Origin: Bacteroidaceae bacterium
GTDB taxonomy: Bacteria > Bacteroidota > Bacteroidia > Bacteroidales > Barnesiellaceae_A
DNA: 64,000 bases
NCBI GenBank assembly: GCA_017410245.1
Contig: JAFQRE010000042.1
Span: 136,536-200,535, forward strand
Direction of reading: 5' to 3'
Shown: positions 1 through 15,975 of the stretch, in pieces
Layout: each line of letters opens with the position of its first letter
Numbering within the stretch: the stretch's first letter is position 1
Position numbers and translations under genes: made by a program
The notes under the pieces: generated by a model
Database searches by the model: none
Told to the model about the DNA's origin: nothing
What the model saw: only the letters and a program-made list of their open reading frames with translations

Positions 1-11
1 GTAAGGACTGT

Positions 12-530
12 ATGGGGATTGCTGTCAGTCCAGATAGACCTTATGATTGGATATTAAAACAAGTTCTTGCAAGGCTTTACAAAGCGGGGTTCAATGATTT
101 AAAGATTGATGATATCACAATCTGGACTGCTACTAGTGAAGAGATGGCCATGTATAAGAAAGGTGGTGTTAATGTTTTCAATGAAGGTTTCTGTTCTGTA
201 CGCGAGAATGGGAAAATAAAAATTTATATTCAGTCACATCACACAAAAATACATTTTGCAGGTGTATTGGCACATGAATTACTCCATGCTTGGTGTTTCC
301 AGCACGGATTATTCAATATCCCCTCACCTATTGCTGAAGGCATGTGTAATCTTGCAAGTTACTATGTATACCACTCTATAGACTTCCCGCTAGCAAGAAT
401 ATATGAAAGTATGCTCTTTGCCGATGAAGACCCTGTCTATGGAGATGGATTTAAAGCAATGTACAAATTTTATGAGGAACACGGTTGGGATGGTGTTCGC
501 TCAATCGTAATAAATTCAAATAACGAATAA
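12..530 (+). CDS. DA1-like Zn-metallopeptidase domain protein (N-terminus may lie outside the window)
   Basis: 172-aa ORF. The frame stays open back to base 3, so the true start may be upstream. AGVLAHELLHAWCFQHG...AEGMCNLASYY resembles the DA1-like peptidase signature (HEMMHAW...EG.CQ). The stop at 530 is 1 nt before the next start. Confidence 0.6.
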   Translation: MGIAVSPDRPYDWILKQVLARLYKAGFNDLKIDDITIWTATSEEMAMYKKGGVNVFNEGFCSVRENGKIKIYIQSHHTKIHFAGVLAHELLHAWCFQHGLFNIPSPIAEGMCNLASYYVYHSIDFPLARIYESMLFADEDPVYGDGFKAMYKFYEEHGWDGVRSIVINSNNE

Positions 531-531
531 T

Positions 532-1239
532 ATGGGTGTAGAAAGATTTAGAGGAGAATCCGCTCCTAACGCAGAGATGAAGTGTCTTTGTGTTTTAGTT
601 ATGGATGTATCAGGCTCAATGGAACCTTGCATTGAAGAGTTAAATGATGCACTTAGAAATTTTTTCAAAGACATTGAATATGCAAGAGGCTTGCCCGAAT
701 CAACAAAGGATCAATTAGAAATTTGCATATATGCCTTTGATGAAGAAGTAATGTTGAAGCGAAATCCTTGCTTACTTAAACCAGGTGAAGTTCCAGCTAA
801 ATTAAATCAAAGAGGAAGTACAACTGAATCAGTCGCTGCATTGCGAGCCGCTATTCAAATGGTTGAAGATCGCAAAGAGTTTTACAAAGATACAGGCCAA
901 CCATATTATAGACCGTGGATTGTGTTTATGACAGATGGTGAGCCATACCCATATAGAGAAAATGAGATTGCTGAAATCGAGGAACAGATTAGACTTGATG
1001 AAAAGGCAAAAAAATATCGTATAATGGGATTAGGTGTTGGAGAGAATATCTCAGAGAAAACCTTAAGACGACTTACAAATAATAATGCACGTAAATTAAA
1101 AGGAACTAATTTTGGTGCATTCTTCGATTGGTTAAGTAATAGTATGGGCATTATAGTTTCTTCTAAACCTGGTCAAAAAGTAGATATTTCTGCCGGTAGT
1201 GATGAATGGATGTCTAAATTTGATGATTTTGAAGTATGA
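532..1239 (+). CDS. TerY-type von Willebrand factor A (vWA) protein
   Basis: 235 aa. MIDAS motifs are present: VLVMDVSGSM (DxSxS), RGSTTE (Thr) and FMTDGEP (Asp). Size and layout fit stand-alone TerY-like vWA proteins. Confidence 0.8.
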   Translation: MGVERFRGESAPNAEMKCLCVLVMDVSGSMEPCIEELNDALRNFFKDIEYARGLPESTKDQLEICIYAFDEEVMLKRNPCLLKPGEVPAKLNQRGSTTESVAALRAAIQMVEDRKEFYKDTGQPYYRPWIVFMTDGEPYPYRENEIAEIEEQIRLDEKAKKYRIMGLGVGENISEKTLRRLTNNNARKLKGTNFGAFFDWLSNSMGIIVSSKPGQKVDISAGSDEWMSKFDDFEV

Positions 1240-2390
1240 TAAATTTAATAGAAAAGGTAACCTCCTTTTTTAAAAATCAAGTCTTTCAAAATACTCTTGA
1301 TATGGAAAAAAACAAGAGCATATCCAATGATTTTGACATAAATGGTTCTGATGTAATAGAAGATGATGTGGTGGTAACTTCAGAATCAAATAATGATAAT
1401 CCGTCCAATAATATTTCAGAAGAGGGTACTGTTAGCACCCTCTCTGAAAATGTTAAAATAGAAGAGATTCCAATAATATCGGATTCTGTGTCTAAAAATG
1501 ATATAGATGAAATTAATAAAGTTTATTTAAGTACTTTACAGTCCTGTGACAATGGTTATGTTATAGGTGCATCTATTCGTGGACGTTCGCACGAACTACA
1601 TGATACTCCATGTCAAGATTATCATATATTTGAAAAAGTTATAGACGGATGGTACATCCTAGCTGTTTCTGATGGTGCAGGCTCTGCTAAATATGCAGCT
1701 CGAGGAGCTAAAGCAAATAGTACCTTTTCAGTACGATTGGTAAAACAAATGTTGATGGAAAAACGCTGGATAGAAAACGAATATTTCCCGACAGAATTAG
1801 AATGGTATATTGAAGCTCGTGCAATATTTGAACGAATAAAACTAATTATTAGGACAAAAGTATCTGAATTGGAGGAGGAAAGTGTAGAAGCTGATTTTAA
1901 TGCTACGCTTTTGTTAGCAATAGTAACACCTAAAGGAGTTTTAACGGCTCATATTGGTGATGGCCGTATGGGATATTTGTCAGATGATGATGAATGGAAA
2001 GCGATGATGACTCCACATAAAGGAGATGAAGCCAATCAAACAATTTTTTTACAAAGTGGTTGGACGTCTCCTATGGTTCCAGCGTTTAAACTTGGTGGAA
2101 TATTTGTACCAGAAATAACTATTGTACGCGGTATGCCAAAGGCCATTGTTCTAATGAGTGATGGTTGTGAACGTGCATCATGGGAGTGCTCCATTATGGA
2201 TATTGAGAAGGGTAAGTTTGTTGATAATAATATTCCTTATAAGGGGTTTATGAATCCATTAATAGAGGCTTTAGATAGTTGTTCTCACGAAGATAGAATG
2301 CAACTCTTTGTGGATATATTGAACCATGGGACCACGGCCTGCGAGAGAGAATTAGATGATAAAACAATGTTATTAGCAGTATTCAAATGA
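1236..2390 (+). CDS. PP2C-family protein phosphatase with low-complexity N-terminal region
   Basis: 384 aa. ATGA start/stop overlap with the vWA gene. The first ~110 aa are Asn/Ser/Asp-rich. The rest carries PP2C_2-like motifs: GASIRGRSH, CQDYH, LAVSDGAGSA, HIGDGR, LMSDG. Confidence 0.75.
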   Translation: MINLIEKVTSFFKNQVFQNTLDMEKNKSISNDFDINGSDVIEDDVVVTSESNNDNPSNNISEEGTVSTLSENVKIEEIPIISDSVSKNDIDEINKVYLSTLQSCDNGYVIGASIRGRSHELHDTPCQDYHIFEKVIDGWYILAVSDGAGSAKYAARGAKANSTFSVRLVKQMLMEKRWIENEYFPTELEWYIEARAIFERIKLIIRTKVSELEEESVEADFNATLLLAIVTPKGVLTAHIGDGRMGYLSDDDEWKAMMTPHKGDEANQTIFLQSGWTSPMVPAFKLGGIFVPEITIVRGMPKAIVLMSDGCERASWECSIMDIEKGKFVDNNIPYKGFMNPLIEALDSCSHEDRMQLFVDILNHGTTACERELDDKTMLLAVFK

Positions 2391-4084
2391 TATATTATAT
2401 ACACAGACAGGGAAAAGATGTTGCGATTGAAACTGAAACTAAAGAACTAAGCAGTGGCGGACAAGGAAAAATCTATAAAATAAGTTCTCCGTATGAATTC
2501 AAGGATTATTGTGTTAAAATCTACAAAAATAAGAAGCACATAGATGAAAACAAAAATAAAATTCAATATATGATTCTTAATCAGCCGAAAAATATAGATA
2601 TGCATAATATTCGTATTTGTTGGCCTGAATACTCTCTCTATGATAATAAAGGGCAATTTGTGGGGTTTGTAATGAAGTTGGCACTTGGCTTCCCAAAAAG
2701 TAGGGATTTGAAAATTTTAAGTATCTATAGCTTTGGAAAAACTATCAAAGAAAAATATCCTGAATGTAAAGAATGGCACGATAAATTTGAATTAACCAAG
2801 TCTTCTGGAACATTGAACCGGATGAAAATGTTGCATAATTGGGCTTTAGCTGTTGAGTTAATACATGAAACGAAAAAGTATGTGATTGTAGATGTTAAGC
2901 CTGATAATGTTTTAGCTACGGCAGACGGTCGAATTTCAATTGTTGATGCAGACTCATTTCAGATTAATGATGGGGCGAATGTTTATAGAGGGCCAGTTGC
3001 AACGCCTGAATATTTCCCTAAGTTTGCCAAATATATTGAACGACAAAAACGACTTCAAACCATAGATTGTGATAATTTTGCACTAGCTGTCGCTTTTTAT
3101 AAAATTCTTATAGGAACGCATCCCTTTAGTGGTTTTAAATTAAAGCCCCCCTATAATACCGATGAATATGCAGATATTTCATCACATATTGAGGCTGAAT
3201 TGTTTGCATTTGGTAAAAAAACAGATTATATAGAATATTTATCTATAAATAATATGCATGAGCGATATAAAACTCTACCGCTTATTTTAAGAAGTATGTT
3301 TAAATCTGCATTAACAAATCAAAGTAATTTACCCATGGCTACAGAATGGAAAAATGCATTTAAACAAGTTCTGAACGGTCAAGGTGCATTTAAGCCTCAT
3401 GCAGATGTAAAGTTTAATAGTACCCCGAACTCAGAAATGAAATGTCTTTGCGTTTTAGTGTTGGATGTGTCTGGTTCGATGAAATTATGTATTAATAGTT
3501 TAAATGAAGCCCTCGATAAATTTATTCGGGATATACGTAAAGGTGTCAATGGTTTCAATGAAAGTTCGAAGGAATGTATAGAATTATCTATTATCCAATT
3601 TGATAAAGATGTGAAAGTATTGCATTACCCTTCATTAGTAGAACAAATTACCAATATCCCCATCTTAACTGTTCGTGGATTAACCACGAATACCTTGTGT
3701 GCATTGGATACAGCATTCGACGTAGTGGAAAAGAGAAAAAGAGAATATAAAGATTTAGGTATACCCTACTATAGGCCATGGATAATTTTACTTACTGATG
3801 GTAATCCGAATCCACTTAATCAAAATGAACTGAATAAATATGCTTCTAAAATTTCAAATGACATAGCTGAGTATAAATATATGCTAACGGCTATTGGTAT
3901 TGGTGAAAAGATTGATAAAAATATTTTATCAATGTTGAGTGATGGTAATTATAGTTTTATTAAACAAAATGGTTTCTCAAAATTCTTTCAATATTTAAGT
4001 GCTAGTATTAGTAACCCGGATAAGTGTTGTTCTCATGATGATTTGTTAGGAGAAATAGATGATTCTCTATCTATTATGTTGTAG
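2387..4084 (+). CDS. Hanks-type Ser/Thr protein kinase fused to a C-terminal vWA domain
   Basis: 565 aa. ATGA overlap with the PP2C gene. Kinase motifs: GGQGKIYK (G-loop), CVKIYK (beta3 Lys), VDVKPDNVL (catalytic loop), IVDADSF (DFG-like), ATPEYFP (APE-like). The C-terminal half is a second vWA domain (VLVLDVSGSM, RGLTTN, LLTDGNP), clearly paralogous to ORF 532-1239. Confidence 0.8.
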   Translation: MIYYIHRQGKDVAIETETKELSSGGQGKIYKISSPYEFKDYCVKIYKNKKHIDENKNKIQYMILNQPKNIDMHNIRICWPEYSLYDNKGQFVGFVMKLALGFPKSRDLKILSIYSFGKTIKEKYPECKEWHDKFELTKSSGTLNRMKMLHNWALAVELIHETKKYVIVDVKPDNVLATADGRISIVDADSFQINDGANVYRGPVATPEYFPKFAKYIERQKRLQTIDCDNFALAVAFYKILIGTHPFSGFKLKPPYNTDEYADISSHIEAELFAFGKKTDYIEYLSINNMHERYKTLPLILRSMFKSALTNQSNLPMATEWKNAFKQVLNGQGAFKPHADVKFNSTPNSEMKCLCVLVLDVSGSMKLCINSLNEALDKFIRDIRKGVNGFNESSKECIELSIIQFDKDVKVLHYPSLVEQITNIPILTVRGLTTNTLCALDTAFDVVEKRKREYKDLGIPYYRPWIILLTDGNPNPLNQNELNKYASKISNDIAEYKYMLTAIGIGEKIDKNILSMLSDGNYSFIKQNGFSKFFQYLSASISNPDKCCSHDDLLGEIDDSLSIML

Positions 4085-4094
4085 AATAAGATTT

Positions 4095-4259
4095 ATGAGC
4101 AAACTAAAGATTCCTGGAGTTTCATTTTCGTTGAAGCGTGCATTAGGATTGACAAAACTGAAGCAGAAGATTAGTCGCCAGACTGGAATTCCTATGAGTG
4201 AGAGCGGAATAGAGCGTAAATTAGGTAGATTGTTGTTGGATAAAATCTTTAAGAGATAA
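4095..4259 (+). CDS. small basic hypothetical protein (54 aa)
   Basis: This uses the internal ATG of the 66-aa track ORF. Product is MSKLKIPGVSFSLKRALGLTKLKQKISRQTGIPMSESGIERKLG..., Lys/Arg-rich. No family recognised. Confidence 0.35.
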   Translation: MSKLKIPGVSFSLKRALGLTKLKQKISRQTGIPMSESGIERKLGRLLLDKIFKR

Positions 4260-4268
4260 GTTCTTACT

Positions 4269-5093
4269 ATGGATTCTAAAGTAGCCATTCGAGGATTAGA
4301 TATTTCGACCATACTACATCCTGAAGACAAATCGACGATGGATACCCTGAAAAAGATTCCGGGGTTTAAGACTGTTGTTGATAGGACTGTGGGCAGTGTA
4401 ATGGAAAAATATGCTGCGGTTGAATATTCGGGAGAGGGTATCAATGTATCGGAGCAATGCCTTCCTGCTTTGAATAGTCAGATTAGGGAAGCTTGCAGAA
4501 TACTTGACATGCAGGAGATTCCAAATTGCTCTATAAACTGGTTCTACCATATTGGCTCTTTTTCTGTTGGTGAAAAGAGCAAGCGAATGGTTTTTCCATC
4601 TGGTTCAATAGATTTATTGACAGCGGAGGAACTGAATTTCTTGATAGGTCACGAACTGGGGCACATGAAGTGCGGTCATAAAACGTATCATATGTTGACT
4701 GAGGCTATGTATCGTCCGATGGTAGGCTCGGACATGGAATTTATAATGAGTTTGATTAAGATGCCTCTGCTCAATTGGTATCGAGTGTCGGATTTTACGG
4801 CTGACCGTATGGGACTTTTGTGCTGCCAAGATATTGAGGTGGCCATCAAGACTATGATAAAGATGGCCGGATTGCCCAAGAAATACCATAATCAGATTCA
4901 TATTGAGTCTTTCATTCAGCAAGCAATAGATTTCAACAAGAACCATTCCGGTTTTTTTGATGAGATGGTGAAGTATCTTTCTATTAATGCTGCTTGTATG
5001 CCTTGGTTGGTATTGAGAGCCTCTGAGTTATTGATATGGTATCAGTCGGGGGAGTATGATAGAATTTTGAATAAAAGTAAATCCATCAGATAA
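4269..5093 (+). CDS. M48-family Zn-metallopeptidase (soluble type)
   Basis: 274 aa. FLIGHELGHMKCGH is an HExxH motif in the typical M48 context (NAF-like segment, then EL..hhhHElGH). No obvious transmembrane segments. Confidence 0.7.
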   Translation: MDSKVAIRGLDISTILHPEDKSTMDTLKKIPGFKTVVDRTVGSVMEKYAAVEYSGEGINVSEQCLPALNSQIREACRILDMQEIPNCSINWFYHIGSFSVGEKSKRMVFPSGSIDLLTAEELNFLIGHELGHMKCGHKTYHMLTEAMYRPMVGSDMEFIMSLIKMPLLNWYRVSDFTADRMGLLCCQDIEVAIKTMIKMAGLPKKYHNQIHIESFIQQAIDFNKNHSGFFDEMVKYLSINAACMPWLVLRASELLIWYQSGEYDRILNKSKSIR

Positions 5094-5117
5094 AAGTTAA
5101 ACTTAATATTAGTTGTT

Positions 5118-5324
5118 ATGAATGCAAGTGTAAACAATCGGGTTAATCAGGAAAACATTCTTGCGATATTGAACAACAATGTTATCAAGGAAGAGAGTAG
5201 GAAGGAAGCTATGATAGCTATGGGACTTTCGTCTTGTCAGGTGGCTTGTATGTCATATAAATGCTGCACCGGGCATGGTAGTGGAGGAAAACACTCCCGA
5301 CATTCCTATAAGATTAAGCATTAG
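5118..5324 (+). CDS. putative RiPP precursor peptide (68 aa, Cys-containing core)
   Basis: The stop lies 2 nt before the radical SAM start. The N-terminal ~35 aa look leader-like (NQENILAILNNNVIKEESRKEAM). The C-terminal part, SSCQVACMSYKCCTGHGSGGKHSRHSYKIKH, has 4 Cys and a His/Lys-rich tail. Confidence 0.5.
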   Translation: MNASVNNRVNQENILAILNNNVIKEESRKEAMIAMGLSSCQVACMSYKCCTGHGSGGKHSRHSYKIKH

Positions 5325-5326
5325 CA

Positions 5327-6556
5327 ATGGAGATACGGACACGCTCTGGTAATATATACTCTTACAACAAACATACCGGCGAGATTCTTGGCGGTTCTAT
5401 AAGTGCGCAACTTCCTGTGTGGGATTTTGCGCCTTTTGTCTCTTTTGAGTCAATGCCGCAAGTCGATTCGTTTATCTTGGGGATAACAGAGCAATGTAAT
5501 CTTCGTTGTACTTATTGTTGCTACTCCGGGAGCTATGTTAATAAGCGGGTGCACAATATCACCTCTATGGACTCAAGGGGCATTGATGAAATTCTTGCAT
5601 TTATAGATTCATTTACAGGCAAGAGACCGATTAAATTGTTTATATACGGAGGAGAGCCTTTGCTCAACTACAACTTGGTTAAATATACTATTGAAAAATC
5701 TCGCAAACGATGGAGCAATGATGTGAGTTTTACGATCTCCACAAATGGCACGACCTTGACCAAGGAGCGCATTGATTGGTTGGTGGCTAATAATATTGTA
5801 TTGGCTCTATCTATTGATGGGACAAAACCATTTCACGATAGTTATCGAGTAGACGCACAAGGTAATGGTTCATATACGAGAGTTTATGATGCGTTGAAGT
5901 ACATCAAGACAACTTATCCAGAGTATGCAAAAGAGATGTCGTTGATTATGACCCTCGCATCGTTTGACAAGATCGTAGATATTGCGGAGGCGTGGCATAA
6001 TGATGAGATTTTACACGATATGTCACCCACAATGATGAACTCCTTAGCTCCGAATTTCAGCCAAGGTGTTGATCGGGCAGACTACGAAGAGGTGAAAGAG
6101 TTCTACGATACGTTGCTTGATACTTATGAGAAACATCAAGATTGGGTTGTATTGAGAAAGTTATTAGAGTCTTGTGTTGCATACTGGAAAGAGCGCCCAA
6201 TCTTTGAGCCGTCATCTGCTGTGCCTATGGCCACTTGCCTGCCTAATAACACAAAGTTGTACATCGATTCTAACCTTCAGATAGGTGTATGCGAAAAAAT
6301 GTCTGATAACTACCGCATAGGCAATATCAAGGACGGCATTGATTGGGTTAAGGCTAATTCAGTCGTTCGTGATTACTACAATAAGCGAGTTGAGCGTTGT
6401 AAAGATTGTTCTGCTGTTAGAATGTGCAATATGTGCTTGACAGCGATGGAGTATACAGATGAACAATGGGATATCTTGTGTCACAACGAGCTGGTATATA
6501 CTCGAGTGTTTATGTATCTGTTTTGTGAAATGGCAGAAAGAGGTTTGATAAGATGA
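5327..6556 (+). CDS. radical SAM enzyme with C-terminal SPASM-like Cys cluster (peptide-modifying maturase candidate)
   Basis: 409 aa. C57-x3-C61-x2-C64 (EQCNLRCTYCCYSG), a GGEPLL SAM-binding motif, and C-terminal Cys clusters CLPNN...GVCEKM and CKDCSAVRMCNMC. Confidence 0.85.
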   Translation: MEIRTRSGNIYSYNKHTGEILGGSISAQLPVWDFAPFVSFESMPQVDSFILGITEQCNLRCTYCCYSGSYVNKRVHNITSMDSRGIDEILAFIDSFTGKRPIKLFIYGGEPLLNYNLVKYTIEKSRKRWSNDVSFTISTNGTTLTKERIDWLVANNIVLALSIDGTKPFHDSYRVDAQGNGSYTRVYDALKYIKTTYPEYAKEMSLIMTLASFDKIVDIAEAWHNDEILHDMSPTMMNSLAPNFSQGVDRADYEEVKEFYDTLLDTYEKHQDWVVLRKLLESCVAYWKERPIFEPSSAVPMATCLPNNTKLYIDSNLQIGVCEKMSDNYRIGNIKDGIDWVKANSVVRDYYNKRVERCKDCSAVRMCNMCLTAMEYTDEQWDILCHNELVYTRVFMYLFCEMAERGLIR

Positions 6557-7047
6557 GTGTTATTCCCAATGTAAGTACAAAGCATAGTCTGCTTACTCAT
6601 GTATCAGAAGAAGATATGAGCACACTCCGAGAAATCTTCGAGGATGTCGAGACCAAAAGATTTCTTCCAGAGCTATATGAACTATTAGATGCTCCTGCAG
6701 GCTTACAAAAATTTGTTTCAACCTTTGAACTATATTCGCAGAATGGTGAAGGGTATTTGTGGGGCATTTATTGTGATGATACGTTGCTCGGATTTGTCGC
6801 AGTAATAGATTTGTCATACAATCCTTCTCTTTTTTACGCTACCCACCCGGCATATCGTTGTCATGGATATATGAAAGGTGCTATATCGGCTGTCTTAGAT
6901 TATATTGGAAAGAGAAGTCTGTGTCATAATATATCAACCGATGTGTATAAAGCGAATAGCACCTCTATACATATTCTACAACAATTAGGTTTTAGTGTTT
7001 ACAAAGAGGACTGTGATAAAGTTTATTTGTCAAAGGTACTTGCTTAG
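6553..7047 (+). CDS. GNAT-family N-acetyltransferase (RimJ/RimL-like)
   Basis: 164 aa. ATGA overlap with the radical SAM gene. GNAT-like core: LLGFVAVIDL, YRCHGYMKGAISAVLDYI, NSTSIHILQQLGF. Confidence 0.65.
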   Translation: MSVIPNVSTKHSLLTHVSEEDMSTLREIFEDVETKRFLPELYELLDAPAGLQKFVSTFELYSQNGEGYLWGIYCDDTLLGFVAVIDLSYNPSLFYATHPAYRCHGYMKGAISAVLDYIGKRSLCHNISTDVYKANSTSIHILQQLGFSVYKEDCDKVYLSKVLA

Positions 7048-7179
7048 TTTCGAGTCGTTTATTGATAAAACAATGTAGAATAGGGGTTGCTAAAGTAGTT
7101 TGAATGATAGTTTTTTGGTGAGTGTAACCGTCTATATAAGAAAAACAAAAGAAATTATAACATTATAATAATAGTTCAT

Positions 7180-7626
7180 ATGAGTAAATACAATGATTAT
7201 GGAGAATTTATGGTAGCAGTGCTTAATGAGGCTGATTATAAGTGCCATCTAAACTCTTATGGAAGTTTAGTTAAGTTGTTTGGTTTAAGTGGAACCAATG
7301 AAAAGCTGATATCAATTATAATTACAATTTTTGAGATAGGCTGGCCTGCATTTAAGGCGACTTGTGCCTTATTGATTCTTGGACCTATTGCTTTTGTTGG
7401 TGCACTTACAGCATTTATTGTAGGAGGAGTAGGAGCAATCATTGTGGCTGCTTTGGCTATTTACGGTGGAGTAAAAGCAATTCATCTTCTGTATGCCAAC
7501 AAGACAACTCCACTTAAAATATACGAAGTTGGCAAAAAGTACAAACCTCGTTTTGATGATCATATCAATGAGTACTCGTATATTGACAATCTGATTGACG
7601 AAGCTGCAAATGATTTAATAAACTAA
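7180..7626 (+). CDS. small membrane protein, Gly/Ala-rich transmembrane hairpin
   Basis: 148 aa. The hydrophobic stretch ISIIITIFEIGWPAFKATCALLILGPIAFVGALTAFIVGGVGAIIVAALAIYGG predicts 2-3 TM helices with small-xxx-small packing motifs. Confidence 0.5.
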   Translation: MSKYNDYGEFMVAVLNEADYKCHLNSYGSLVKLFGLSGTNEKLISIIITIFEIGWPAFKATCALLILGPIAFVGALTAFIVGGVGAIIVAALAIYGGVKAIHLLYANKTTPLKIYEVGKKYKPRFDDHINEYSYIDNLIDEAANDLIN

Positions 7627-7636
7627 CTCTATAATT

Positions 7637-7891
7637 ATGGCAAATATTAATTACTACAAATGCTCTCGTTGTGGAGAGATTACACGACAAATTGAAATTA
7701 GTCAGAGAGAATTGACTGCTATTGAAGGCGGTGCATGGTGGGAACAAGCTTTTTCAGCTATAAATGATATAGATGGATTATCTTTTTTATTTAGGGAGGC
7801 AGGAATCCTTCGACCATATAAATGTACTAAATGTGGACGTGTTTCTAATAGGTCATTTGGAGGAGATGACAAAGGATATCTTGCTGGATAA
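7637..7891 (+). CDS. zinc-ribbon protein (CxxC...CxxC)
   Basis: 84 aa. The pairs CSRCGE and CTKCGR lie ~55 aa apart. Confidence 0.5.
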   Translation: MANINYYKCSRCGEITRQIEISQRELTAIEGGAWWEQAFSAINDIDGLSFLFREAGILRPYKCTKCGRVSNRSFGGDDKGYLAG

Positions 7892-7912
7892 TAAAGATTA
7901 ACTAAGAACAGA

Positions 7913-8002
7913 ATGATGACTATAAATCCCCTAGGTTGTATTATTGTTGGAGTAGTTTCGGTTGTAGCGATCTATGAGGATACGAAAAAGAATGAACAAT
8001 AA
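7913..8002 (+). CDS. possible 29-aa hydrophobic micropeptide
   Basis: Hand-translated ORF, below the track cutoff: MMTINPLGCIIVGVVSVVAIYEDTKKNEQ. It has one predicted TM helix and a charged tail. There is no other support. Confidence 0.2.
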   Translation: MMTINPLGCIIVGVVSVVAIYEDTKKNEQ

Positions 8003-8114
8003 ATATTGTAGAAATTATCGATGGTTATCGTCTATTTGATAGACCCAAATGTAACACAAGGTATCTTAATCTATTAGTAATAATAAGACAAATAACTAAT
8101 TAATAATAACGATT

Positions 8115-8300
8115 ATGGGCATTATAGGAGCAATATATCATGGAATTAAAGGTGGCTATAAGCTTTTGGTTGATGATTCAGATGCAGCAAGTGAAGAATT
8201 AGACAAGGCTGTTGATAGTCTTCATAAAACCGTTGTTATCGACCCAATTGGAATTAGTGACATACCAGATATCATTGATGATATATCTGAAGAGTGCTAG
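8115..8300 (+). CDS. small acidic hypothetical protein (61 aa)
   Basis: Track ORF with a Gly-rich N-terminus (MGIIGAIYHGIKGG) and a very acidic C-terminus (DIPDIIDDISEEC). Confidence 0.35.
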   Translation: MGIIGAIYHGIKGGYKLLVDDSDAASEELDKAVDSLHKTVVIDPIGISDIPDIIDDISEEC

Positions 8301-8427
8301 ATGCAATAGTGTATCTATATACTCATCTATGCGATGATTAAAGGTAAAGATTTAATTGAGCAAAAGATCCGGGATTCTAAAAACAAGAAGTGATAGGAAG
8401 TTTTCTAAAACCTTAATATTCAAAATT

Positions 8428-8721
8428 ATGGCTTGGAATAGTTTAACAGATAGACAAAAGTCGTTAGACCGTGCTATTGAGCAGTGTGGTGTCAAGTTGG
8501 ATAATTCAGATGCCTGCCTTCGTAGGGTTATGTCTGCAATTGGTGCATCTGTATCAGAAGCTGCTTTCGTTAAGCAACGCATTGAGTTACGACTAAGAAC
8601 TGCTGCGCTACTTGATAAGACCGATGCATTTATTTCAAATACGGAGCAAATGCTTGACCGATTTGAAAAGGACGATGAAGAGTGGCGCAAACGTGCTAAA
8701 AAGCTAGGTATAAATCTTTAA
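8428..8721 (+). CDS. hypothetical protein (97 aa, helical)
   Basis: The track ORF begins at a TTG (8356). The first ATG, at 8428, gives MAWNSLTDRQKSLDRAIEQ.... No family recognised. Confidence 0.4.
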   Translation: MAWNSLTDRQKSLDRAIEQCGVKLDNSDACLRRVMSAIGASVSEAAFVKQRIELRLRTAALLDKTDAFISNTEQMLDRFEKDDEEWRKRAKKLGINL

Positions 8722-8734
8722 AAACAAAATAATT

Positions 8735-8938
8735 ATGGGTATTTTCGTAAATGACAGAGCTTGGAATCTTAAGCAGGCCAAAGATAGAAAAGAACATGGC
8801 GATTGGCATGTTAGAAAGGCTAATGAAGCGTTGAGAAGAGGTGATACTTCGGCTTATAATGACCATATGTACCGTTCAAAAATTTACTATAATGAAGCTG
8901 ATGCATATATGGCTTCTGCTAGAAAATCTACCAAATAA
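8735..8938 (+). CDS. hypothetical protein (67 aa)
   Basis: Track ORF, charged and helical, co-directional with its neighbours. Confidence 0.4.
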   Translation: MGIFVNDRAWNLKQAKDRKEHGDWHVRKANEALRRGDTSAYNDHMYRSKIYYNEADAYMASARKSTK

Positions 8939-9004
8939 TGAGTTTTATATGGCAGTTTTGAGAGGAGTGTTTAAGTTTTCTCATCTATAAGACTATATGC
9001 TACT

Positions 9005-10063
9005 ATGACTAAAGACGCGATTGATCAAATATTCGACCGAGCCCGCCACGGAGATGTCTTTGCCCAAACACTTATGGGGCAAATACTCTGCGAGGGCAAG
9101 TATGTGCAGCAAGATAGGCAGAACGGCATAGGCTGGCTTAGAGATGCAGCGCAGTGTAATTGCTTATACGCAAAGGAACTCATCAATGAGTATTTGAGTG
9201 GGCAAGTAAATGCACCTCATGGCACAACTCATGAACAAAGACCAAACTCAACTGAGGACAATACTGATGTGGATAATCTTGCAGAACTGAAATCGCTGAT
9301 TGGTCTTGAGCGTGTAAAACAAGATGTCGATTCGTTGCGTAACCTTATCAAGATTCAGGCCATGCGTAAGCAACAAGGCTTGCCCAATACTTCGGTATCG
9401 TACCACTGTGTTTTCTCGGGCAACCCCGGTACGGGTAAGACTACGGTTGCTCGCATCGTAGCCGGTATTTATAAAGAGCTTGGCATCTTGAAGAAGGGGC
9501 ACCTTGTAGAAGTAGATCGTTCGAAACTTGTTGGCGAATATGTAGGTCAAACAGCCCCTAAGACCAATAAGGTGATAGATGAGGCTCTCGATGGCGTGCT
9601 ATTTATCGATGAGGCATACACTCTCGTTGGCGAAGGAAGCGATTATGGTGCTGAGGCTATAGCTACTCTGCTCAAACGTATGGAGGACGATCGTGATCGT
9701 TTGGTTGTCATACTTGCCGGTTATACGAATGAGATAAAGGAGTTTATTGACTCCAATCCCGGGTTGCAATCTCGCTTCAATCGTTACATACAGTTTGATG
9801 ACTATTCGGCCGAGGAATTGACCGAGATTTTCAAACGCAACTTGCGCAAGTCGAGATACAAGATTAAGCGTGATGCCTTCGAGGAGTTGCAAAGTGTCAT
9901 TGAGCGTGCTGTCGCCTCACGCGACAAGAACTTCGGTAATGCACGATATGTACGCAACCTTTTTGAGAAGGTTGTTCAGAATCAGGCAAACCGCTTGGCC
10001 AGAATGGCTAGTATTGATAACGATGAGTTGAGTATAATTACTCGCGAAGATATTAACTTCTAA
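9005..10063 (+). CDS. Sel1-repeat + SpoVK/CbbX/EccA-type AAA+ ATPase
   Basis: 352 aa. The N-terminus is Sel1-like (GDVFAQTLMGQILCEGKYVQQDRQNGIGWLRDAAQ). Walker A is GNPGTGKTTVARI and Walker B is GVLFIDEAY. The segments LVGEYVGQTAPKT and RLVVILAGY are typical of the CbbX/SpoVK clade. Confidence 0.85.
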   Translation: MTKDAIDQIFDRARHGDVFAQTLMGQILCEGKYVQQDRQNGIGWLRDAAQCNCLYAKELINEYLSGQVNAPHGTTHEQRPNSTEDNTDVDNLAELKSLIGLERVKQDVDSLRNLIKIQAMRKQQGLPNTSVSYHCVFSGNPGTGKTTVARIVAGIYKELGILKKGHLVEVDRSKLVGEYVGQTAPKTNKVIDEALDGVLFIDEAYTLVGEGSDYGAEAIATLLKRMEDDRDRLVVILAGYTNEIKEFIDSNPGLQSRFNRYIQFDDYSAEELTEIFKRNLRKSRYKIKRDAFEELQSVIERAVASRDKNFGNARYVRNLFEKVVQNQANRLARMASIDNDELSIITREDINF

Positions 10064-10074
10064 CCCAGACGAAT

Positions 10075-10602
10075 ATGGACGAACTAAACAATCTTTTCGG
10101 CGGAGCCGAGCAGTTGTGGCAATATATCAAGATATATGCTGCCAAAGCCGGTCGTGAGGCTACGCGCGTAGTGTTGGAATTGTACTATGTGGTCAAATCA
10201 CCGCATACACCGGCATTGGATAAGACTCTTATCATCGCTGCGCTCGGATATCAACTTCTTCCTAATGACTTAATGAGTCGAGAAAAATATGGTTGGTTGG
10301 GTATCCTTGATAATGGAGCTGCCTTGGCATTAGCATATAATAGAGTTAAAACCCGTGTTACGCCACAAATTGAGGCGCAAGTAGATGCAATACTTGACCA
10401 GTGGTTTGGCTCGGACATACAACAGACTCAAGCTCCCATAGAGCAACCTCAAATAAATAATGACAGTAATAATGGAGGAAACAACTATTGGGAACCACAG
10501 GCCTCAACATTACCCTCTACACTCGATTCCCCTATTAATTCAAATCGTCCTAATACTCCACTGGGAGGTTATAGTGATGATGAAGATGTTGTGATTGATT
10601 GA
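10075..10602 (+). CDS. DUF1232 (YkvA)-like protein with Gln/Asn/Pro-rich tail
   Basis: 175 aa. IIAALGYQLLPNDLMSREKYGWLGILDNGAALALAY resembles the DUF1232 core (Y..sP.DliPD..p.lG.lDD). The C-terminal 60 aa are low complexity. Confidence 0.5.
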   Translation: MDELNNLFGGAEQLWQYIKIYAAKAGREATRVVLELYYVVKSPHTPALDKTLIIAALGYQLLPNDLMSREKYGWLGILDNGAALALAYNRVKTRVTPQIEAQVDAILDQWFGSDIQQTQAPIEQPQINNDSNNGGNNYWEPQASTLPSTLDSPINSNRPNTPLGGYSDDEDVVID

Positions 10603-10666
10603 TGAAGAGTGCAAGGCTTACTGAAATTCTATAATATATAACTATGGTATATAAATTATAAGTATT

Positions 10667-10828
10667 ATGAATCACTATTGTATTATAATTAAAGAAAAAG
10701 ACAGAGAAAAAGAGTGGGTTTGTCACTTGTTTAGAGAGGAGGAATTATCTGAAGAGGATATAATAAGAATTTATGGACTCAAAGATGGAAGTGTTGAATG
10801 GTATTGTATTAATAAAATGAAGGATTAA
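10667..10828 (+). CDS. possible 53-aa ORF
   Basis: Hand-translated: MNHYCIIIKEKDREKEWVCHLFREEELSEEDIIRIYGLKDGSVEWYCINKMKD. It fills an otherwise empty 300-nt gap. No other support. Confidence 0.2.
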   Translation: MNHYCIIIKEKDREKEWVCHLFREEELSEEDIIRIYGLKDGSVEWYCINKMKD

Positions 10829-10906
10829 TACAATATCCTCCTAATACTAATTGAGTGAAACTTTTAGTTCTATGTATAATAATGATATATTGGCAATTAT
10901 AACAAT

Positions 10907-11563
10907 ATGTTTAACAAATTCAGGTGTTGGTTATTCAATCATACTTCTATGAATGAGTTCCTGAAGATGAGTCAACGCTTCAAGAAGTTTGGCTTGTCGC
11001 CCAATGATGTGGAGGACGCTATTAAATCGGCGTGCGATTTCTTTCATATCCCCATGCCTTGTATGATTCAAGACCTGACCAATGTAAAGAATGGGCAGAC
11101 TATGTTTGTAAACTACAATAGAGGTAGTTATGATGATGATGTGTTGTGCTTCAATATGCAACAATTGGTCGATATGAAGGTTGATAGCAAAGAGGCATTC
11201 AGCCTTGTCATGACTCACGAGTGTGCTCATCGTGTATTGCAAAACACACAGTTCCCGGGAGTGAATAATGGCATATGGGAACATGAACTTGCAGCCGACT
11301 TTTTGATGGGCTGTCGTGCCGGACTATGGAATATGGACGAGTCTAAACTTGCAGTGGGGCTAATCCTAACCAATGGAAGCCCCACACACCCCGAAGGTAC
11401 AATAAGGGCTCTTTTTATTCGTCATGGCAAGTATAAGGCGATAGAAATGCGAAATAAATCCATACCATTGACTATTCCCAATTTGCTTAATGAATTTATG
11501 AAGTACCGACAAGAGAACTTAGAACTTATACATCAGTATCAACGAAAGTTTTATAGATTTTAA
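10907..11563 (+). CDS. putative Zn-metallopeptidase (HExxH)
   Basis: 218 aa. LVMTHECAHRVLQN is followed by EHELAADFLMG. The start codon is uncertain, with alternative Met at residues 15 and 21. Confidence 0.5.
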   Translation: MFNKFRCWLFNHTSMNEFLKMSQRFKKFGLSPNDVEDAIKSACDFFHIPMPCMIQDLTNVKNGQTMFVNYNRGSYDDDVLCFNMQQLVDMKVDSKEAFSLVMTHECAHRVLQNTQFPGVNNGIWEHELAADFLMGCRAGLWNMDESKLAVGLILTNGSPTHPEGTIRALFIRHGKYKAIEMRNKSIPLTIPNLLNEFMKYRQENLELIHQYQRKFYRF

Positions 11564-11722
11564 GAAATGGACAGAATAGACATATAGCCATAGTTTTCTC
11601 CCATTATATTCTCATATAAATAAAAATCGGCTATATTTTTATCTGTAAAAGATATTTTTAGCTCGGGTTACTACTCTATACGATAAAAGAGTTGGTAATC
11701 CGAGCTAAAAGTTTATAAAGAC

Positions 11723-13507
11723 ATGAATGCAACATTGAGCATAGGACAAAAGGTTGGAGATTTCTGCGTTGAGGAGTTTGTCAAGACTTCTTCTGATAAT
11801 CGTGGGGAGAGTTACTTCGTAAGTGACAAAGATGGACGTAAGGCGTTGATGAAGTTGTATGCTGCCGACGCCGAAAGTCACACGCTTGAGTGTGAGGTAA
11901 ATACTGTGTTGTCAATAAACTCTGCATTTGTGCCTATGGTTGCAGTCGGAGATATTGAGCATAATGGTGTTGCTTTTCGCTATATTGTTCGCGAGTATGT
12001 CGAAGGTGAACGCTTGTCGGAGATTGTTAAAGCCGGTCGTCTGTATTCGTGGGAGGAGGCTATGCCTATTATCCTGCAAGTATTGAATGCATTGAAGCAT
12101 CTTCACTCGCTAGATAAGGCGATTATTCACAATGATATTACGGCTCGTAACATTCTTATCAATGAAGAAAGGAAACAAGTCTATATCATCGGTATGGGGC
12201 ATATGTCACATCAATGCAATGGTAGGGCAACTTTTTGTACTAAAGACCTGAACAATTGGTATCGTGCTCCTGAGACCTTCAAAGGTATCTACGGTGTGAA
12301 GTCCGACATCTTCTCTGTTGGAGCTTTGTTGTATACGATGCTTGTAGGCTTCGAGCCATGGGGTGTGATTGCTGATGTATATGGCCCCGATGTGGATAAA
12401 AGTATGTTGAAACGTCTTCGCTCTATTGGTGATGAAATCATAGATGATATTCAAATTACCGATGAGCAGAAAGTGATTTTGGGTAAGATGATTGCTCTTG
12501 ATTACGATAAGCGCTATAGCTGTGTCGATGATGTCGTAAAAGGCATAATACATGGTGTTTCAAAAAAGGATCTTCAAGAGTCACCTTGGTATAGAGTGGT
12601 CAATGAAGAAGCCGATGAGGAGGCCGATGTAGAGCTTGACATAGAAGAAGATGTTGACACAGATGCAACAACAAACGGTGTAAACGGAGGCTTTGCCGAT
12701 GTAGCAGGCATGGCCGATGTGAAAAGTATGCTATATAAAGAAGTGATGTTTGTGATGCAAAATAAAGAGAAGGCCCGTAAATACCGCTTGAAAGCACCCA
12801 ATGGTGTGCTCTTCTATGGCCCTCCGGGGTGTGGTAAGACTTTCATTGCCGAAAAGTTTGCCGAGGAGTCGCATCTTAACTTTATGATGGTTAAGGCTTC
12901 TGATTTGGGTAGTATATATATTCATGGTTCTCAAGGTAAGATTGCAGAACTTTTCGATGAGGCGACTAAGAAAGCTCCAACTGTCATTTGCTTTGACGAA
13001 CTTGATGGAATGGTGCCCGATCGTACATCTATTCAGAACGAAGGTTTATCGGGAGAGGTCAATGAGTTTTTGAGTCAGCTTAATAACTGCTCGGATCGTG
13101 GCATCTTTGTGATAGGTACTTCAAATCGTCCGGAGAAGATAGATCCGGCAATACTCCGTACCGGTCGTATGGATAAGATGGTTTATATCCCTATGCCTGA
13201 TGCTGAGGCCCGCAAAGAACTCTTTAAGATTTACCTTGATGACAGATACTGTGACGAAAGTATCGATCTTGATGAGCTTGCTCAGAAAAGCGAAGGGTAT
13301 GTTGCTAGTGACATAAGTTTTATGGCAAACGAGAGTGCGCTGGAGGCGGCAATGGCTGATGTGCCTATAACTCAAGATTTGGTTCTTGGAGTGATGCGCA
13401 AAGCTCGCCGTTCGGTAACGCAAAATGACGCTGCCGACTATGAACGTATGCGTAAGAAATTTGAGCAGCAAAGCTATAGCCATGAACGCCACAGAATTGG
13501 ATATTAA
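11723..13507 (+). CDS. protein-kinase-like domain fused to classical AAA ATPase (copy 1)
   Basis: 594 aa. N-half is a eukaryotic-like kinase fold: ALMKLY, IIHNDITARNILI, YRAPE, SDIFSVGALLYTML. The DFG position reads IIGMGH. An acidic linker follows (EEADEEADVELDIEEDVDTD). C-half is a classical AAA module: Walker A GPPGCGKT, Walker B VICFDELD, sensor-1 GTSNRP, SRH/Arg finger PAILRTGRMD. Confidence 0.85.
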   Translation: MNATLSIGQKVGDFCVEEFVKTSSDNRGESYFVSDKDGRKALMKLYAADAESHTLECEVNTVLSINSAFVPMVAVGDIEHNGVAFRYIVREYVEGERLSEIVKAGRLYSWEEAMPIILQVLNALKHLHSLDKAIIHNDITARNILINEERKQVYIIGMGHMSHQCNGRATFCTKDLNNWYRAPETFKGIYGVKSDIFSVGALLYTMLVGFEPWGVIADVYGPDVDKSMLKRLRSIGDEIIDDIQITDEQKVILGKMIALDYDKRYSCVDDVVKGIIHGVSKKDLQESPWYRVVNEEADEEADVELDIEEDVDTDATTNGVNGGFADVAGMADVKSMLYKEVMFVMQNKEKARKYRLKAPNGVLFYGPPGCGKTFIAEKFAEESHLNFMMVKASDLGSIYIHGSQGKIAELFDEATKKAPTVICFDELDGMVPDRTSIQNEGLSGEVNEFLSQLNNCSDRGIFVIGTSNRPEKIDPAILRTGRMDKMVYIPMPDAEARKELFKIYLDDRYCDESIDLDELAQKSEGYVASDISFMANESALEAAMADVPITQDLVLGVMRKARRSVTQNDAADYERMRKKFEQQSYSHERHRIGY

Positions 13508-13536
13508 TATATTGTATAACTTAAATACGTGAAGAC

Positions 13537-13917
13537 ATGAAAATGATTGACAAAGTAATGAATGAGTTGCAGAAACAAGGTTTTCTGCCCCAACGTGAAG
13601 ACTTCGGTATTGCTTTCAAGTACCAAATGGCCGGTTACCTCTTTTTGGCCGATAAGACTGACGATGACTACTTCAGTCTTTATATCCCGTACTTCTTTGA
13701 GGTAGATGAGGAGAATAAAGCAGATGTGCTTGAGGCCATGAATGCTATCAATAATGACGTGAAAGTGGTAAAACTTGTGATTAATGATGGTTATGTATGG
13801 GCTTGTTTTGAAGAAAAGTTACCGGAAAATGCCAATATAGAGGACATTTTATTTTATTCTATTGTAACTTTGTACCTTTCTCGTCAGCAATTTTACGAGA
13901 AGTTGAAAGAGGTATAA
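13537..13917 (+). CDS. hypothetical protein (126 aa; faint YbjN/chaperone-like resemblance)
   Basis: Track ORF 30 nt downstream of the kinase-AAA gene. A hairpin plus T-run follows at 13955-13992. The family assignment is not secure. Confidence 0.45.
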   Translation: MKMIDKVMNELQKQGFLPQREDFGIAFKYQMAGYLFLADKTDDDYFSLYIPYFFEVDEENKADVLEAMNAINNDVKVVKLVINDGYVWACFEEKLPENANIEDILFYSIVTLYLSRQQFYEKLKEV

Positions 13918-13954
13918 CAACGATATATGTGTGTGCCTAAGGTCGGATTTCCCG

Positions 13955-13992
13955 GCTCTACCGTGTGGGTATATCTTGCAGTAGAGCTTTTT
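13955..13992 (+). terminator. possible terminator after ORF 13537-13917
   Basis: GCTCTAC (13955-13961) pairs with GTAGAGC (13981-13987), followed by T5. The loop is long (19 nt). Confidence 0.4.
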
Positions 13993-14080
13993 AAGATGAC
14001 GCCGTCTTATTTTATTATATCCCAAGTGGTGCGAGTGCCACTTGGGGGCAACTGAAAAGCAATATTAAAACATTAATAGT

Positions 14081-14482
14081 ATGAATGCAATAATTAGTTA
14101 CCATGAGATTTCGGATTTTGTAGAGAGGGAGTTTAAGGTACGTCCCAATTTTACTACTGTGGATAAAAAGACTATTGAGGTTAGTTACAAACCCAATATG
14201 TTTATGCCGGCTATAGCTGTCAAGTTTCATATTGAGGCGATGCGTCGTGATGTCATCTGTATGACATATGATTGTAGTGCTCCTACCTCTATGATGATTG
14301 CCGGTGTTGTTGCTTTTCTTGAGGAGAAGATTCCGAGTGGTATTGATGTGAACACTACCGACAAGCGTGTCAATATCTATGTGCAACGATTGAATCAATT
14401 GGAGAAGGTGCTTGAGTATGTGACATTGTCTGATATCTCTTTTGAAGACAATTCGGTCAATATTGCTCTTTCAATAGTGTAG
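14081..14482 (+). CDS. hypothetical protein (133 aa)
   Basis: Track ORF; no motif recognised. The overlapping minus-strand ORF 14015-14398 was judged spurious. Confidence 0.45.
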   Translation: MNAIISYHEISDFVEREFKVRPNFTTVDKKTIEVSYKPNMFMPAIAVKFHIEAMRRDVICMTYDCSAPTSMMIAGVVAFLEEKIPSGIDVNTTDKRVNIYVQRLNQLEKVLEYVTLSDISFEDNSVNIALSIV

Positions 14483-14560
14483 TTATCGAACTTTCAAGGC
14501 TCTGTGACTATCCTTGGAGTGTATCGGTAAGTCGTGTGTTTCATTATAAGTTTTAGTTTT

Positions 14561-15106
14561 ATGGGAATTTTAAATAAGTTATGTAAATCAATTAAGAATT
14601 GTGTGATAAGATTATTTGATAGGTCGTCGGTTAGCGAAGTAAACGAGCGAGAAACAAACTCATCAAAGCAAACGACTGAACCTACAGAATTGTCAAATGT
14701 TTTTAATGACACCCAAGACTCCATTGGTTATGTGGATTTAGGACTTCCAAGTGGTACCCTGTGGGCCGATAGTGATGTATTGGAAGAGAATATATCTGAC
14801 GATTGTTCCCTTCCTACCTATGAGCAGGCTACAGAACTGATCGAATACTGCCAATTTGAGATAATAACTATGCCTCAGGAAAACAGGGAAAGTATCAAAT
14901 ACAGTAGGGTAATAGGCCCTAATGGCAAATTCATCAGTTTCCGGTTGAATGAATATGAAGAGTATCCATTTCCTACGGTAGCTCGTTGGTGCAAAGGTGG
15001 ACCAAGACAGGGATTGCAGTATGTTCTTCTGATAAGTGAAGCAACTATTACTATTGGCGTTGCTTCAAACAAAGCTCTTTATCCATCTCGTATGGTAAGA
15101 ATCTGA
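14561..15106 (+). CDS. hypothetical protein (181 aa)
   Basis: The track ORF starts at a GTG (14534); the first ATG is at 14561 (MGILNKLCK...). It contains the VDLGLPSGTLWA segment that recurs in small Bacteroidales proteins. Confidence 0.4.
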   Translation: MGILNKLCKSIKNCVIRLFDRSSVSEVNERETNSSKQTTEPTELSNVFNDTQDSIGYVDLGLPSGTLWADSDVLEENISDDCSLPTYEQATELIEYCQFEIITMPQENRESIKYSRVIGPNGKFISFRLNEYEEYPFPTVARWCKGGPRQGLQYVLLISEATITIGVASNKALYPSRMVRI

Positions 15107-15973: not shown

Positions 15974-15975
15974 TA

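Follow-up and report, generated by a model that had tools for sequence, protein, structure and literature searches.

A conserved peptidase, precursor, radical SAM and GNAT cassette of gut Bacteroidales with the features of a RiPP pathway

Introduction

What is a 68-residue peptide for when its gene lies between those of a peptidase and a radical S-adenosylmethionine (rSAM) enzyme, and are the proteins encoded around it there to modify it? The question is raised by positions 4269–7047 of a 64,000-nt stretch of a Bacteroidaceae genome (contig JAFQRE010000042.1 of assembly GCA_017410245.1), which we analyzed at its full length and call the window. Genes for an M48 metallopeptidase, the small peptide, an rSAM enzyme and a GNAT acetyltransferase follow one another there. 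A first reading made from the letters alone (the original prediction) suggested that they might be a locus making a peptide that ribosomes synthesize and that is modified after translation (a RiPP), one that is modified by the rSAM enzyme and acetylated.

rSAM/SPASM peptide maturases rank among the main sources of new peptide chemistry. The Bacteroidales are dominant bacteria of the gut and, to our knowledge, their modified peptides are almost unknown. We find that the four genes form a real, widely conserved and undescribed cassette of gut Bacteroidales. With a probability of roughly 0.6, we read it as a self-contained RiPP-like pathway in which the rSAM enzyme cross-links the peptide, the M48 peptidase removes a leader and the GNAT acetylates the product, which has no dedicated exporter.

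Results

Gene order and conservation. The four open reading frames (ORFs) lie where the original prediction placed them, as confirmed from the sequence and by Pfam:
4269–5093, plus strand: M48 peptidase gene, 274 aa, HELGH at residue 128
5118–5324, plus strand: precursor peptide gene, 68 aa, MNASVNNRVNQENILAILNNNVIKEESRKEAMIAMGLSSCQVACMSYKCCTGHGSGGKHSRHSYKIKH
5327–6556, plus strand: rSAM gene, 409 aa, with C57x3C61x2C64, C304...C322 and C358xxC361x5C367xxC370
6553–7047, plus strand: GNAT gene, 164 aa, its ATG inside the ATGA overlap at 6553–6556

The M48 and peptide genes are 24 nt apart on recount, not the 25 nt first given, and the peptide stop codon ends 2 nt before the ATG of the rSAM gene (5327). 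The overlap of the rSAM stop with the GNAT start through ATGA (6553–6556) was read correctly, and the two genes appear to be translationally coupled through it.

Scans of genome and metagenome collections gave 86 loci with a family member; a scan of genome contigs with a single protein query gave only one locus. Neighbours were counted over unique related loci having enough flanking sequence. The peptide gene is directly upstream of the rSAM gene in 61 of 63 such loci. L095, one of the two exceptions, is an artefact of counting: the locus was added when the search file already existed, and its 68-aa gene has been called; in the other (L081), the peptide gene is 2 kb upstream, beside M48 genes. 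An M48 gene is found no more than 6 kb upstream of the rSAM gene in 54 of 57 loci, and a GNAT is downstream of the rSAM enzyme or fused to it in all loci (60/60). The order M48 (one to three copies), peptide (one or two), rSAM, GNAT is kept down to 34% rSAM identity across ~60 distinct loci (tblastn). Because the order recurs so widely and at such low identity, the four-gene arrangement is far beyond chance. Genes outside the four vary between loci. The original prediction depended on the small ORF being conserved next to rSAM homologues, and it stands beside essentially every one of them.

In a large protein database, 388 protein clusters are homologous to the rSAM protein, nearly all from gut or rumen Bacteroidales metagenomes, and the cassette is common in such metagenomes, with 427 confirmed stretches. 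Existing annotations read only ‘radical SAM protein’, ‘M48 family metallopeptidase’ or ‘hypothetical protein’. Family members occur in the cultivable species Parabacteroides goldsteinii (WP_046147505.1), P. segnis and Bacteroides acidifaciens, and one more distant member is in a Puniceicoccales metagenome-assembled genome.

Precursor peptide. Pairs of peptide orthologues differ mostly by synonymous changes, with a synonymous distance (dS) of 0.6–1.1 and a nonsynonymous distance (dN) of 0.06–0.17. Given the resulting dN/dS of 0.09–0.23, the ORF is, on sequence grounds, a real gene under purifying selection. Homologues are called as genes in 26 clusters, every one unnamed, and searches of Pfam, NCBIfam and PHROGs with the peptide gave zero matches.

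An alignment of 54 unique precursor sequences suggests two parts:
5118–5225, plus strand: proposed leader, residues 1–36, ending at the invariant Gly36
5226–5321, plus strand: proposed core, residues 37–68, with C40-Q41-x-x-C44 at nt 5235–5249 followed by a variable, basic, Cys/His-rich tail

L18, N19, G36, C40 and C44 are invariant in all 54 sequences. N21 is kept in 53, M35 in 51 and Q41 in 53, with Asn in the single exception. The leader follows the motif (I/V)(L/M)x(I/V)LNxN(R/V)Ix(E/D)...(K/R)xA(I/V)xAMG, and is followed by [LMI]-[SA]-[SAI]-C-[Q/N]-x-x-C-[LMI], so that the motif overall is G36-x-x-x-C40-[Q/N]-x-x-C44. The boundary between leader and core would therefore lie at or near Gly36. 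The leader ends in A-M-G followed by L, M or I, and lacks the Gly-Gly of a double-glycine leader.

The tail differs sharply among subfamilies and is conserved inside each, giving about six sequence types; examples are CLSCSHCSHHCGK, CMSYKCCTGHGSGGKH.., CIAVTGARHYSAKH and CMGGGQAYRYHRARH. The region from C40 to the C-terminus holds two to seven Cys, counting the two of the motif, and its last residue is usually basic or His. Within subfamilies the core has a dN of 0.04–0.16 at a dS of ~1–2. Six loci (L019, L020, L021, L028, L058 and L067) carry two tandem precursor genes before one rSAM gene (in L020, at 3257–3421 and 3434–3601). The tail types of such pairs differ, examples being ...CLNCGHCAHHCGK and ...CIAVTGARHYSAKH. 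Since paired precursors in one locus have only the leader and the CQxxC motif in common, it is most plausibly this motif that the rSAM enzyme targets in both. A small precursor that is conserved together with a modifying enzyme, and whose leader is conserved while its core varies more, is what generally marks a RiPP cassette, and judging by the alignments this locus has that form.

Radical SAM enzyme. The enzyme matches the rSAM family in Pfam (PF04055, 64.9 bits against a cutoff of 29.5, E = 1.3e-17). Its cluster motif is C57NLRC61TYC64, and the CxxxCxxC pattern is invariant in 29 of 29 family representatives, as are seven C-terminal Cys (304, 322, 358, 361, 367, 370 and 385). The auxiliary Cys are spaced CX2CX5CX2C; the canonical SPASM spacing is CX2CX5CX3C. 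The first half of the original call of a radical SAM/SPASM protein holds firmly (PF04055, CxxxCxxC). The second half is less clear from SPASM profile hidden Markov models (HMMs): TIGR04085 gives 26.1 bits, 0.9 below its cutoff of 27, and PF13186 gives no match. We keep the SPASM call because of the seven invariant Cys, the alignments to the SPASM parts of maturase models and the fold matches.

Scores against curated NCBIfam models are highest for peptide maturases: CcpM (TIGR04068, 185.6 bits against a cutoff of 500), RumMC (NF035951, 157.1/720), GG_samocin_CFB (TIGR04148, 154.6/300) and PapB (NF047865, 141.3/340). The SCIFF maturase model ScfB (TIGR03974) gives 91.6 bits for a cutoff of 425. 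The QhpD model is a secondary match. Distant family members rank the models alike, with 168–206 bits for CcpM. These scores place the enzyme, in our judgment, among the thioether-forming peptide maturases. The original prediction named clustering with anaerobic sulfatase-maturating enzymes (anSME) as evidence against a RiPP role, and no such clustering was found (TIGR03942, 94.7 bits against a cutoff of 349.45, with 185.6 for CcpM). We reject an anSME-type enzyme because of these scores and of the context, as the array has no sulfatase gene.

An exhaustive search of 1.84 billion representatives found full-length relatives (~410 aa) in ~25–30 clusters. The next relatives are CcpM-like proteins of 460–500 aa, whose extra ~80–100 N-terminal residues have no counterpart here. 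Alignments to the CcpM model begin near model position 82, and the N-terminal RiPP recognition element (RRE) part is missing. An AlphaFold2 (AF2) model (pLDDT 79, pTM 0.79) consists of three short N-terminal strands, an rSAM core and a C-terminal auxiliary domain. Its best Foldseek match is the ranthipeptide maturase CteB (5wgg, E = 1.4e-17), which is also the best match among solved sequences; anSME, ChlB, TigE and SkfB structures match as well. The N-terminal 45 residues are highly conserved, and an RRE had been suggested as something to look for there. Pfam gives nothing on residues 1–48 at E ≤ 10, and the model of this part is made of the three short beta-strands, with no helices and no winged helix.

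In one further protein (P0176, 1151 aa), a family-like rSAM domain (~48–412) is fused to ~740 residues in which Pfam finds no domain.

M48 peptidase. The protein upstream of the precursor scores 43.8 bits with Pfam PF01435, whose cutoff is 20.3, and has the zinc site HELGH. It is soluble, with no transmembrane segment (maximal Kyte–Doolittle hydropathy, KD19, of 1.19). Against the HtpX and LoiP equivalogs it scores ~20 bits, for cutoffs of 275–365, and it has no match to any solved sequence. Its AF2 model (pLDDT 86.5) gives weak fold matches (E ≥ 2.5e-3), all to M48 or M56 proteins: 3c37, BlaR1, BepA and ZMPSTE24. Arrays carry one to three M48 paralogues, often two or three. In the array of the window, two further M48 genes lie ~10 kb upstream, as seen in the overlapping locus L095. 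We considered that one paralogue might be inactive and serve as a leader-binding scaffold; this is ruled out, as every paralogue keeps HExxH.

We propose that the M48 protein is a leader or trimming peptidase. A second, unrelated cassette bears on where it might cut. It is found a few kilobases upstream of the main one in L036 (1571–5225), and also in L033, L034, L039, L040 and L041. The order in L036 is an M48 gene, a 194-aa Cys/His protein, a 56-aa Cys-rich peptide (2944–3114) and a 698-aa rSAM enzyme. In the 56-aa peptide (...DDVAMGCSDGCWDGCIGSC...), ‘AMG’ immediately precedes the Cys-rich part, which by analogy supports cutting by M48 at the ‘AMG’ junction of the main precursor.

GNAT. The acetyltransferase matches PF13302 (Acetyltransf_3, RimJ/RimL-like) with 53.6 bits, for a cutoff of 25.4, and reaches no NCBIfam equivalog cutoff. 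The rSAM enzyme and the GNAT are one in-frame polypeptide in 14 of 48 loci, and such fusions occur in five independent clusters at 50% identity (P0148, P0158, P0161, P0163 and P0169). The fusions are strong evidence, as far as gene structure can tell, that the two proteins serve one shared pathway, and they make the GNAT link stronger than the original prediction had claimed.

Genomic setting. The cassette belongs to an array of ~25 kb with ~30 genes on the same strand, which covers window positions 12–15106 and ends ~15.1 kb into the window, before a minus-strand LrgB-like gene. The start of the array is outside the window and is seen in L095 (808–20708), which is 99.99% identical to window positions 12–10000 over the shared 10 kb. 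The array head in L095 consists of a NusG paralogue, a sigma-70 region 2 protein, 113- and 111-aa proteins, two M48 genes, an 836-aa protein and one with DUF4407. Arrays of this kind, led by NusG and shuffled in content, recur in many Bacteroidales loci. They often begin with a NusG paralogue, a sigma-70 region 2 protein and a small putative anti-sigma factor, and in several loci the cassette comes directly after these. Their gene pool includes TerY-P, DUF4407, DUF445, DUF1232, SIR2, SMODS+S_4TM, DA1-like, TY-Chap1 and Zn-ribbon/BACON proteins, an 815-aa GTPase-like protein and a kinase-AAA fusion.

A TerY-P-like module does lie upstream of the cassette, as first noticed, with Pfam matches for a VWA protein (532–1239), a PP2C protein (1236–2390) and a kinase-VWA protein (2387–4084). 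Its adjacency had been thought unusual; it is incidental, since flanking genes differ between loci. The unusual setting is the whole array. The observation that exporter and double-glycine leader are lacking holds across that array: neither in it nor among recurrent neighbours is there a transporter or exporter, C39-containing ATP-binding cassette (ABC) transporters included. The idea that the GNAT is followed by a conserved gene for export or immunity was also rejected, as the next gene differs by locus and is not consistently a membrane protein. A 148-aa membrane protein in the window has no homologue in the other loci.

Other origins and roles were examined and set aside. For a phage or plasmid origin, blastn of positions 4000–7200 against a phage collection gave nothing and PHROGs matches were generic; a scan of viral contigs gave only distant, partial rSAM genes at 25–30% identity. 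Beyond 16 kb the window is ordinary chromosome (RecQ, DnaK, IleRS, PurL). As for a known defence system, PADLOC-DB 2.0 gave no match for the M48 protein or the GNAT, and for the rSAM enzyme only a partial, generic pVip match (residues 53–168). No regulatory RNA or attenuator was found near the cassette: Rfam gave nothing in positions 1–16000, and promoter- and terminator-like sites are no commoner than in shuffled sequence.

One further small ORF lies beside the cassette:
4095–4259, plus strand: basic 54-aa ORF (MSKLKIPGVSFSLKRALG...), between the kinase-VWA gene and the M48 gene

It has no Pfam match. Homologues at 59–74% identity are found in 20 other loci (tblastn), either just upstream of M48 or just after the GNAT. 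Identical copies are in L095 and L096, which represent the window's own array, and are called as genes there. From this distribution it appears to be a frequent, non-universal companion of the cassette.

Several other genes were seen in passing. In L003 (10347–13986; also L004 and L005), past the GNAT and a 130-aa gene, are a second rSAM enzyme of 435 aa (23% identity) and, besides it, a Mur-ligase-like protein of 431 aa and an M42/M20 peptidase, a set that may be another peptide-modification module. Within the window's array, 11723–13507 (plus strand) encodes a 594-aa fusion of a Ser/Thr kinase and an AAA+ ATPase that recurs in several arrays and partially matches the PADLOC models mads_6, IetA and PD-T4-6. 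A 352-aa protein with Sel1-like and AAA+ (CbbX/SpoVK-like) parts and a weak IetA match is encoded at 9005–10063 (plus strand). A 218-aa protein at 10907–11563 (plus strand) has an HExxH motif (THECAHRV) and no Pfam or PADLOC match, and may be a further metallopeptidase of the array. Outside the array are a 757-aa surface-type protein with BspA-type leucine-rich repeats and Big_2 (23382–25655, plus strand) and a 2077-aa surface-type protein with Big_5, Fn3-associated and CHB_HEX_C domains (46575–52808, minus strand).

Discussion

Proposed pathway. The preferred reading can be set out in five steps. The 68-aa product would consist of a leader of ~36 residues and a Cys-rich core. The rSAM/SPASM enzyme would then bind this precursor without a classical RRE; its 45-aa N-terminal beta-sheet may instead pair strands with the ILxILNxN segment of the leader. 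A 5′-deoxyadenosyl radical, together with auxiliary Fe-S clusters, would form a cross-link in C40-[Q/N]41-x-x-C44. By analogy with NxxC-type and ranthipeptide enzymes, the likeliest product is a thioether from the sulfur of Cys44 to a side-chain carbon of Gln41, and extra Cys-derived links are possible in the variable tail. In the third step, the soluble M48 peptidase or peptidases would cut at the ‘AMG’ junction, close to the invariant Gly36, and take off the leader. The RimL-like GNAT would then acetylate the peptide, most likely at the newly exposed alpha-amine. With every enzyme cytoplasmic and no exporter conserved, the product is finally expected to act inside the cell or to leave by a non-dedicated route. 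The idea of an rSAM-modified, acetylated peptide is supported by the gene set; thioether formation and acetylation are steps that we infer.

Several points weigh against this pathway. Its chemistry is deduced rather than observed. The rSAM enzyme scores below every curated family cutoff (CcpM, 186 against 500), Pfam SPASM (PF13186) gives nothing on it even at E ≤ 10, and neither Pfam nor the AF2 model places an RRE in it. Only two Cys of the core are invariant and some cores have just these, which is unusual for Cys-rich ranthipeptides. An M48 gene is missing within 6 kb upstream in 3 of 57 loci, and no description of M48 enzymes as RiPP leader peptidases was found in the papers searched. The substrate of the GNAT is not readable from its sequence, and self-protection could be its role instead. 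Lastly, the missing exporter fits a classical bacteriocin poorly.

Alternative readings. We put forward a bolder, non-bacteriocin reading only tentatively. The cassette would be a conserved head module of an undescribed ~25-kb Bacteroidales array led by NusG and an extracytoplasmic function (ECF)-type sigma factor, and would make an intracellular, N-acetylated, rSAM-cross-linked, Cys/His-rich peptide that serves the array. Leader recognition would be RRE-independent and the soluble M48 proteins would be a new class of RiPP peptidase. The peptide would in that case act as a signal, as a cofactor with metal or redox activity, or as an effector set free under certain conditions.

The cofactor role can also be put forward by itself, in the manner of mycofactocin or pyrroloquinoline quinone (PQQ). 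The rSAM enzyme would cross-link the peptide, one to three M48 paralogues would release G-x-x-x-C-Q-x-x-C by cuts on either side, and the GNAT would acetylate the freed amine of a fragment that is redox-active or metal-binding inside the cell. Exporter-less rSAM-SPASM pathways with a peptidase do exist (MftA-C/E, PqqA/E/F), and the cassette likewise has cytoplasmic enzymes throughout, no exporter and up to three active M48 paralogues per array. The motif is also strictly invariant, against a tail that varies widely, and it is all that two precursor types in one locus share. We nevertheless think this route unlikely, as a discarded tail would not be expected to be under the strong purifying selection seen within subfamilies (dN 0.04–0.16, dS ~1–2), and its recurrent basic or His C-terminus suggests that it belongs to the product. 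The peptide-derived cofactors known to us have invariant cores without variable followers, and no cofactor-using oxidoreductase is conserved near the cassette.

A regulatory or effector role would leave the enzymology of the preferred pathway as it is and change only the purpose: the peptide would be an intracellular signal or effector of the NusG/sigma-led array and not a secreted antimicrobial. It might feed back on the sigma/anti-sigma pair, or be a toxin released in stress or phage attack. The position of the cassette directly after NusG, sigma and putative anti-sigma genes in many loci speaks for this role, and the window's array starts likewise (L095). So do neighbours drawn from a conflict and stress pool (TerY-P, DUF4407, SIR2, SMODS+S_4TM, kinase-AAA, TY-Chap1, DA1-like), and the lack of an exporter. 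All of this is association, however, with arrays that have no known function themselves. PADLOC gives only the generic rSAM match for the cassette proteins, and chromosomal RiPP clusters can use transporters encoded elsewhere, so we regard such a role as improbable.

The obligatory and often fused rSAM-GNAT pair recalls Elp3, a fused rSAM and GNAT protein that uses acetyl-CoA in a radical reaction. On that precedent, the GNAT would bind acetyl-CoA as a radical co-substrate and the rSAM enzyme would attach an acetyl-derived carbon unit to the peptide. This is very doubtful: the rSAM enzyme is a SPASM-type maturase nearest the thioether formers and not Elp3-like, the GNAT is of the RimJ/RimL N-acetyltransferase type, and the two are separate proteins in most loci. 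That the rSAM enzyme matures a protein, as anSME and QhpD do, and that the small ORF is incidental, is hardly credible in spite of the secondary matches to both models and the anSME structures among the fold matches, as the anSME score is half that of CcpM and far below its own cutoff of 349, the array has no sulfatase or amine dehydrogenase gene, and the small ORF is conserved along with the enzyme at essentially every locus and is under purifying selection.

Significance. If the preferred pathway is true, the cassette offers a directly testable case of RRE-independent leader recognition, and a way into the function of the large NusG-led Bacteroidales gene arrays. It stands apart from described systems in several ways: the precursor family is new and has an invariant C-[Q/N]-x-x-C, the enzyme lacks an RRE domain, a GNAT is obligatorily coupled or fused to it, the M48 peptidases are soluble and there is no exporter.

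Comparison with known systems

The closest system is that of the CcpM/CteB-type maturases of ranthipeptides and SCIFF peptides (TIGR04068, TIGR03974; PDB 5WGG), which give the best HMM, solved-sequence and fold matches. Shared features are CxxxCxxC with a seven-Cys, SPASM-type C-terminus and a gene for a Cys-containing precursor immediately upstream. The cassette differs in its score (186 against 500), in lacking the N-terminal RRE part, in a precursor that belongs to no curated family, and in having M48 and GNAT partners and no transporter.

Streptococcal NxxcA/NxxcB provides a lead on the chemistry. NxxcB acts on an NxxC motif, where it forms a beta-thioether from Cys to the beta-carbon of Asn and also accepts Gln in place of that Asn (PMC9389541). 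The invariant [Q/N]-x-x-C of the cassette precursor resembles this motif, a likeness that may point to similar chemistry. Organism, leader and gene context differ, and the cassette has an extra invariant Cys right before the Gln.

Bacteroidales rSAM RiPP clusters that have been described pair GG-motif precursors with peptidase-containing ABC transporter (PCAT) exporters (PMC10352776). Like the cassette, these clusters belong to the order Bacteroidales and have an rSAM/SPASM enzyme and a small precursor; their model GG_samocin_CFB (TIGR04148) is the third-best HMM match at 155 bits. This is below the cutoff of 300, and the cassette lacks the Gly-Gly leader, the ABC transporter with a C39 peptidase, and the membrane fusion and outer-membrane proteins. 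M48 or acetyltransferase partners are unmentioned in the Bacteroidales RiPP mining paper (PMC10352776) and in the rSAM-RiPP compendium, and literature searches found no paper describing an M48-associated rSAM peptide system.

As pathways without an exporter, in which a cytoplasmic rSAM-SPASM enzyme acts with a small precursor and a metallopeptidase, those for mycofactocin and PQQ resemble the cassette. Unlike them, it has no MftB- or PqqD-like RRE protein, its rSAM enzyme is nearer the thioether formers, its precursor has a variable tail and the GNAT is the sole further tailoring enzyme. The HExxH M48 fold is shared with Ste24/ZMPSTE24 and HtpX, and Ste24 processes the precursor of a small Cys-modified peptide pheromone. 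The cassette's M48 protein differs from these in being soluble, 274 aa long and free of membrane helices, and the fold matches are weak (E ≥ 2.5e-3). Since equivalog cutoffs are unmet and the RRE is absent, we place the cassette outside all curated families, as a system that, by its motifs and closest relatives, appears to work like a ranthipeptide or NxxC-type rSAM RiPP pathway.

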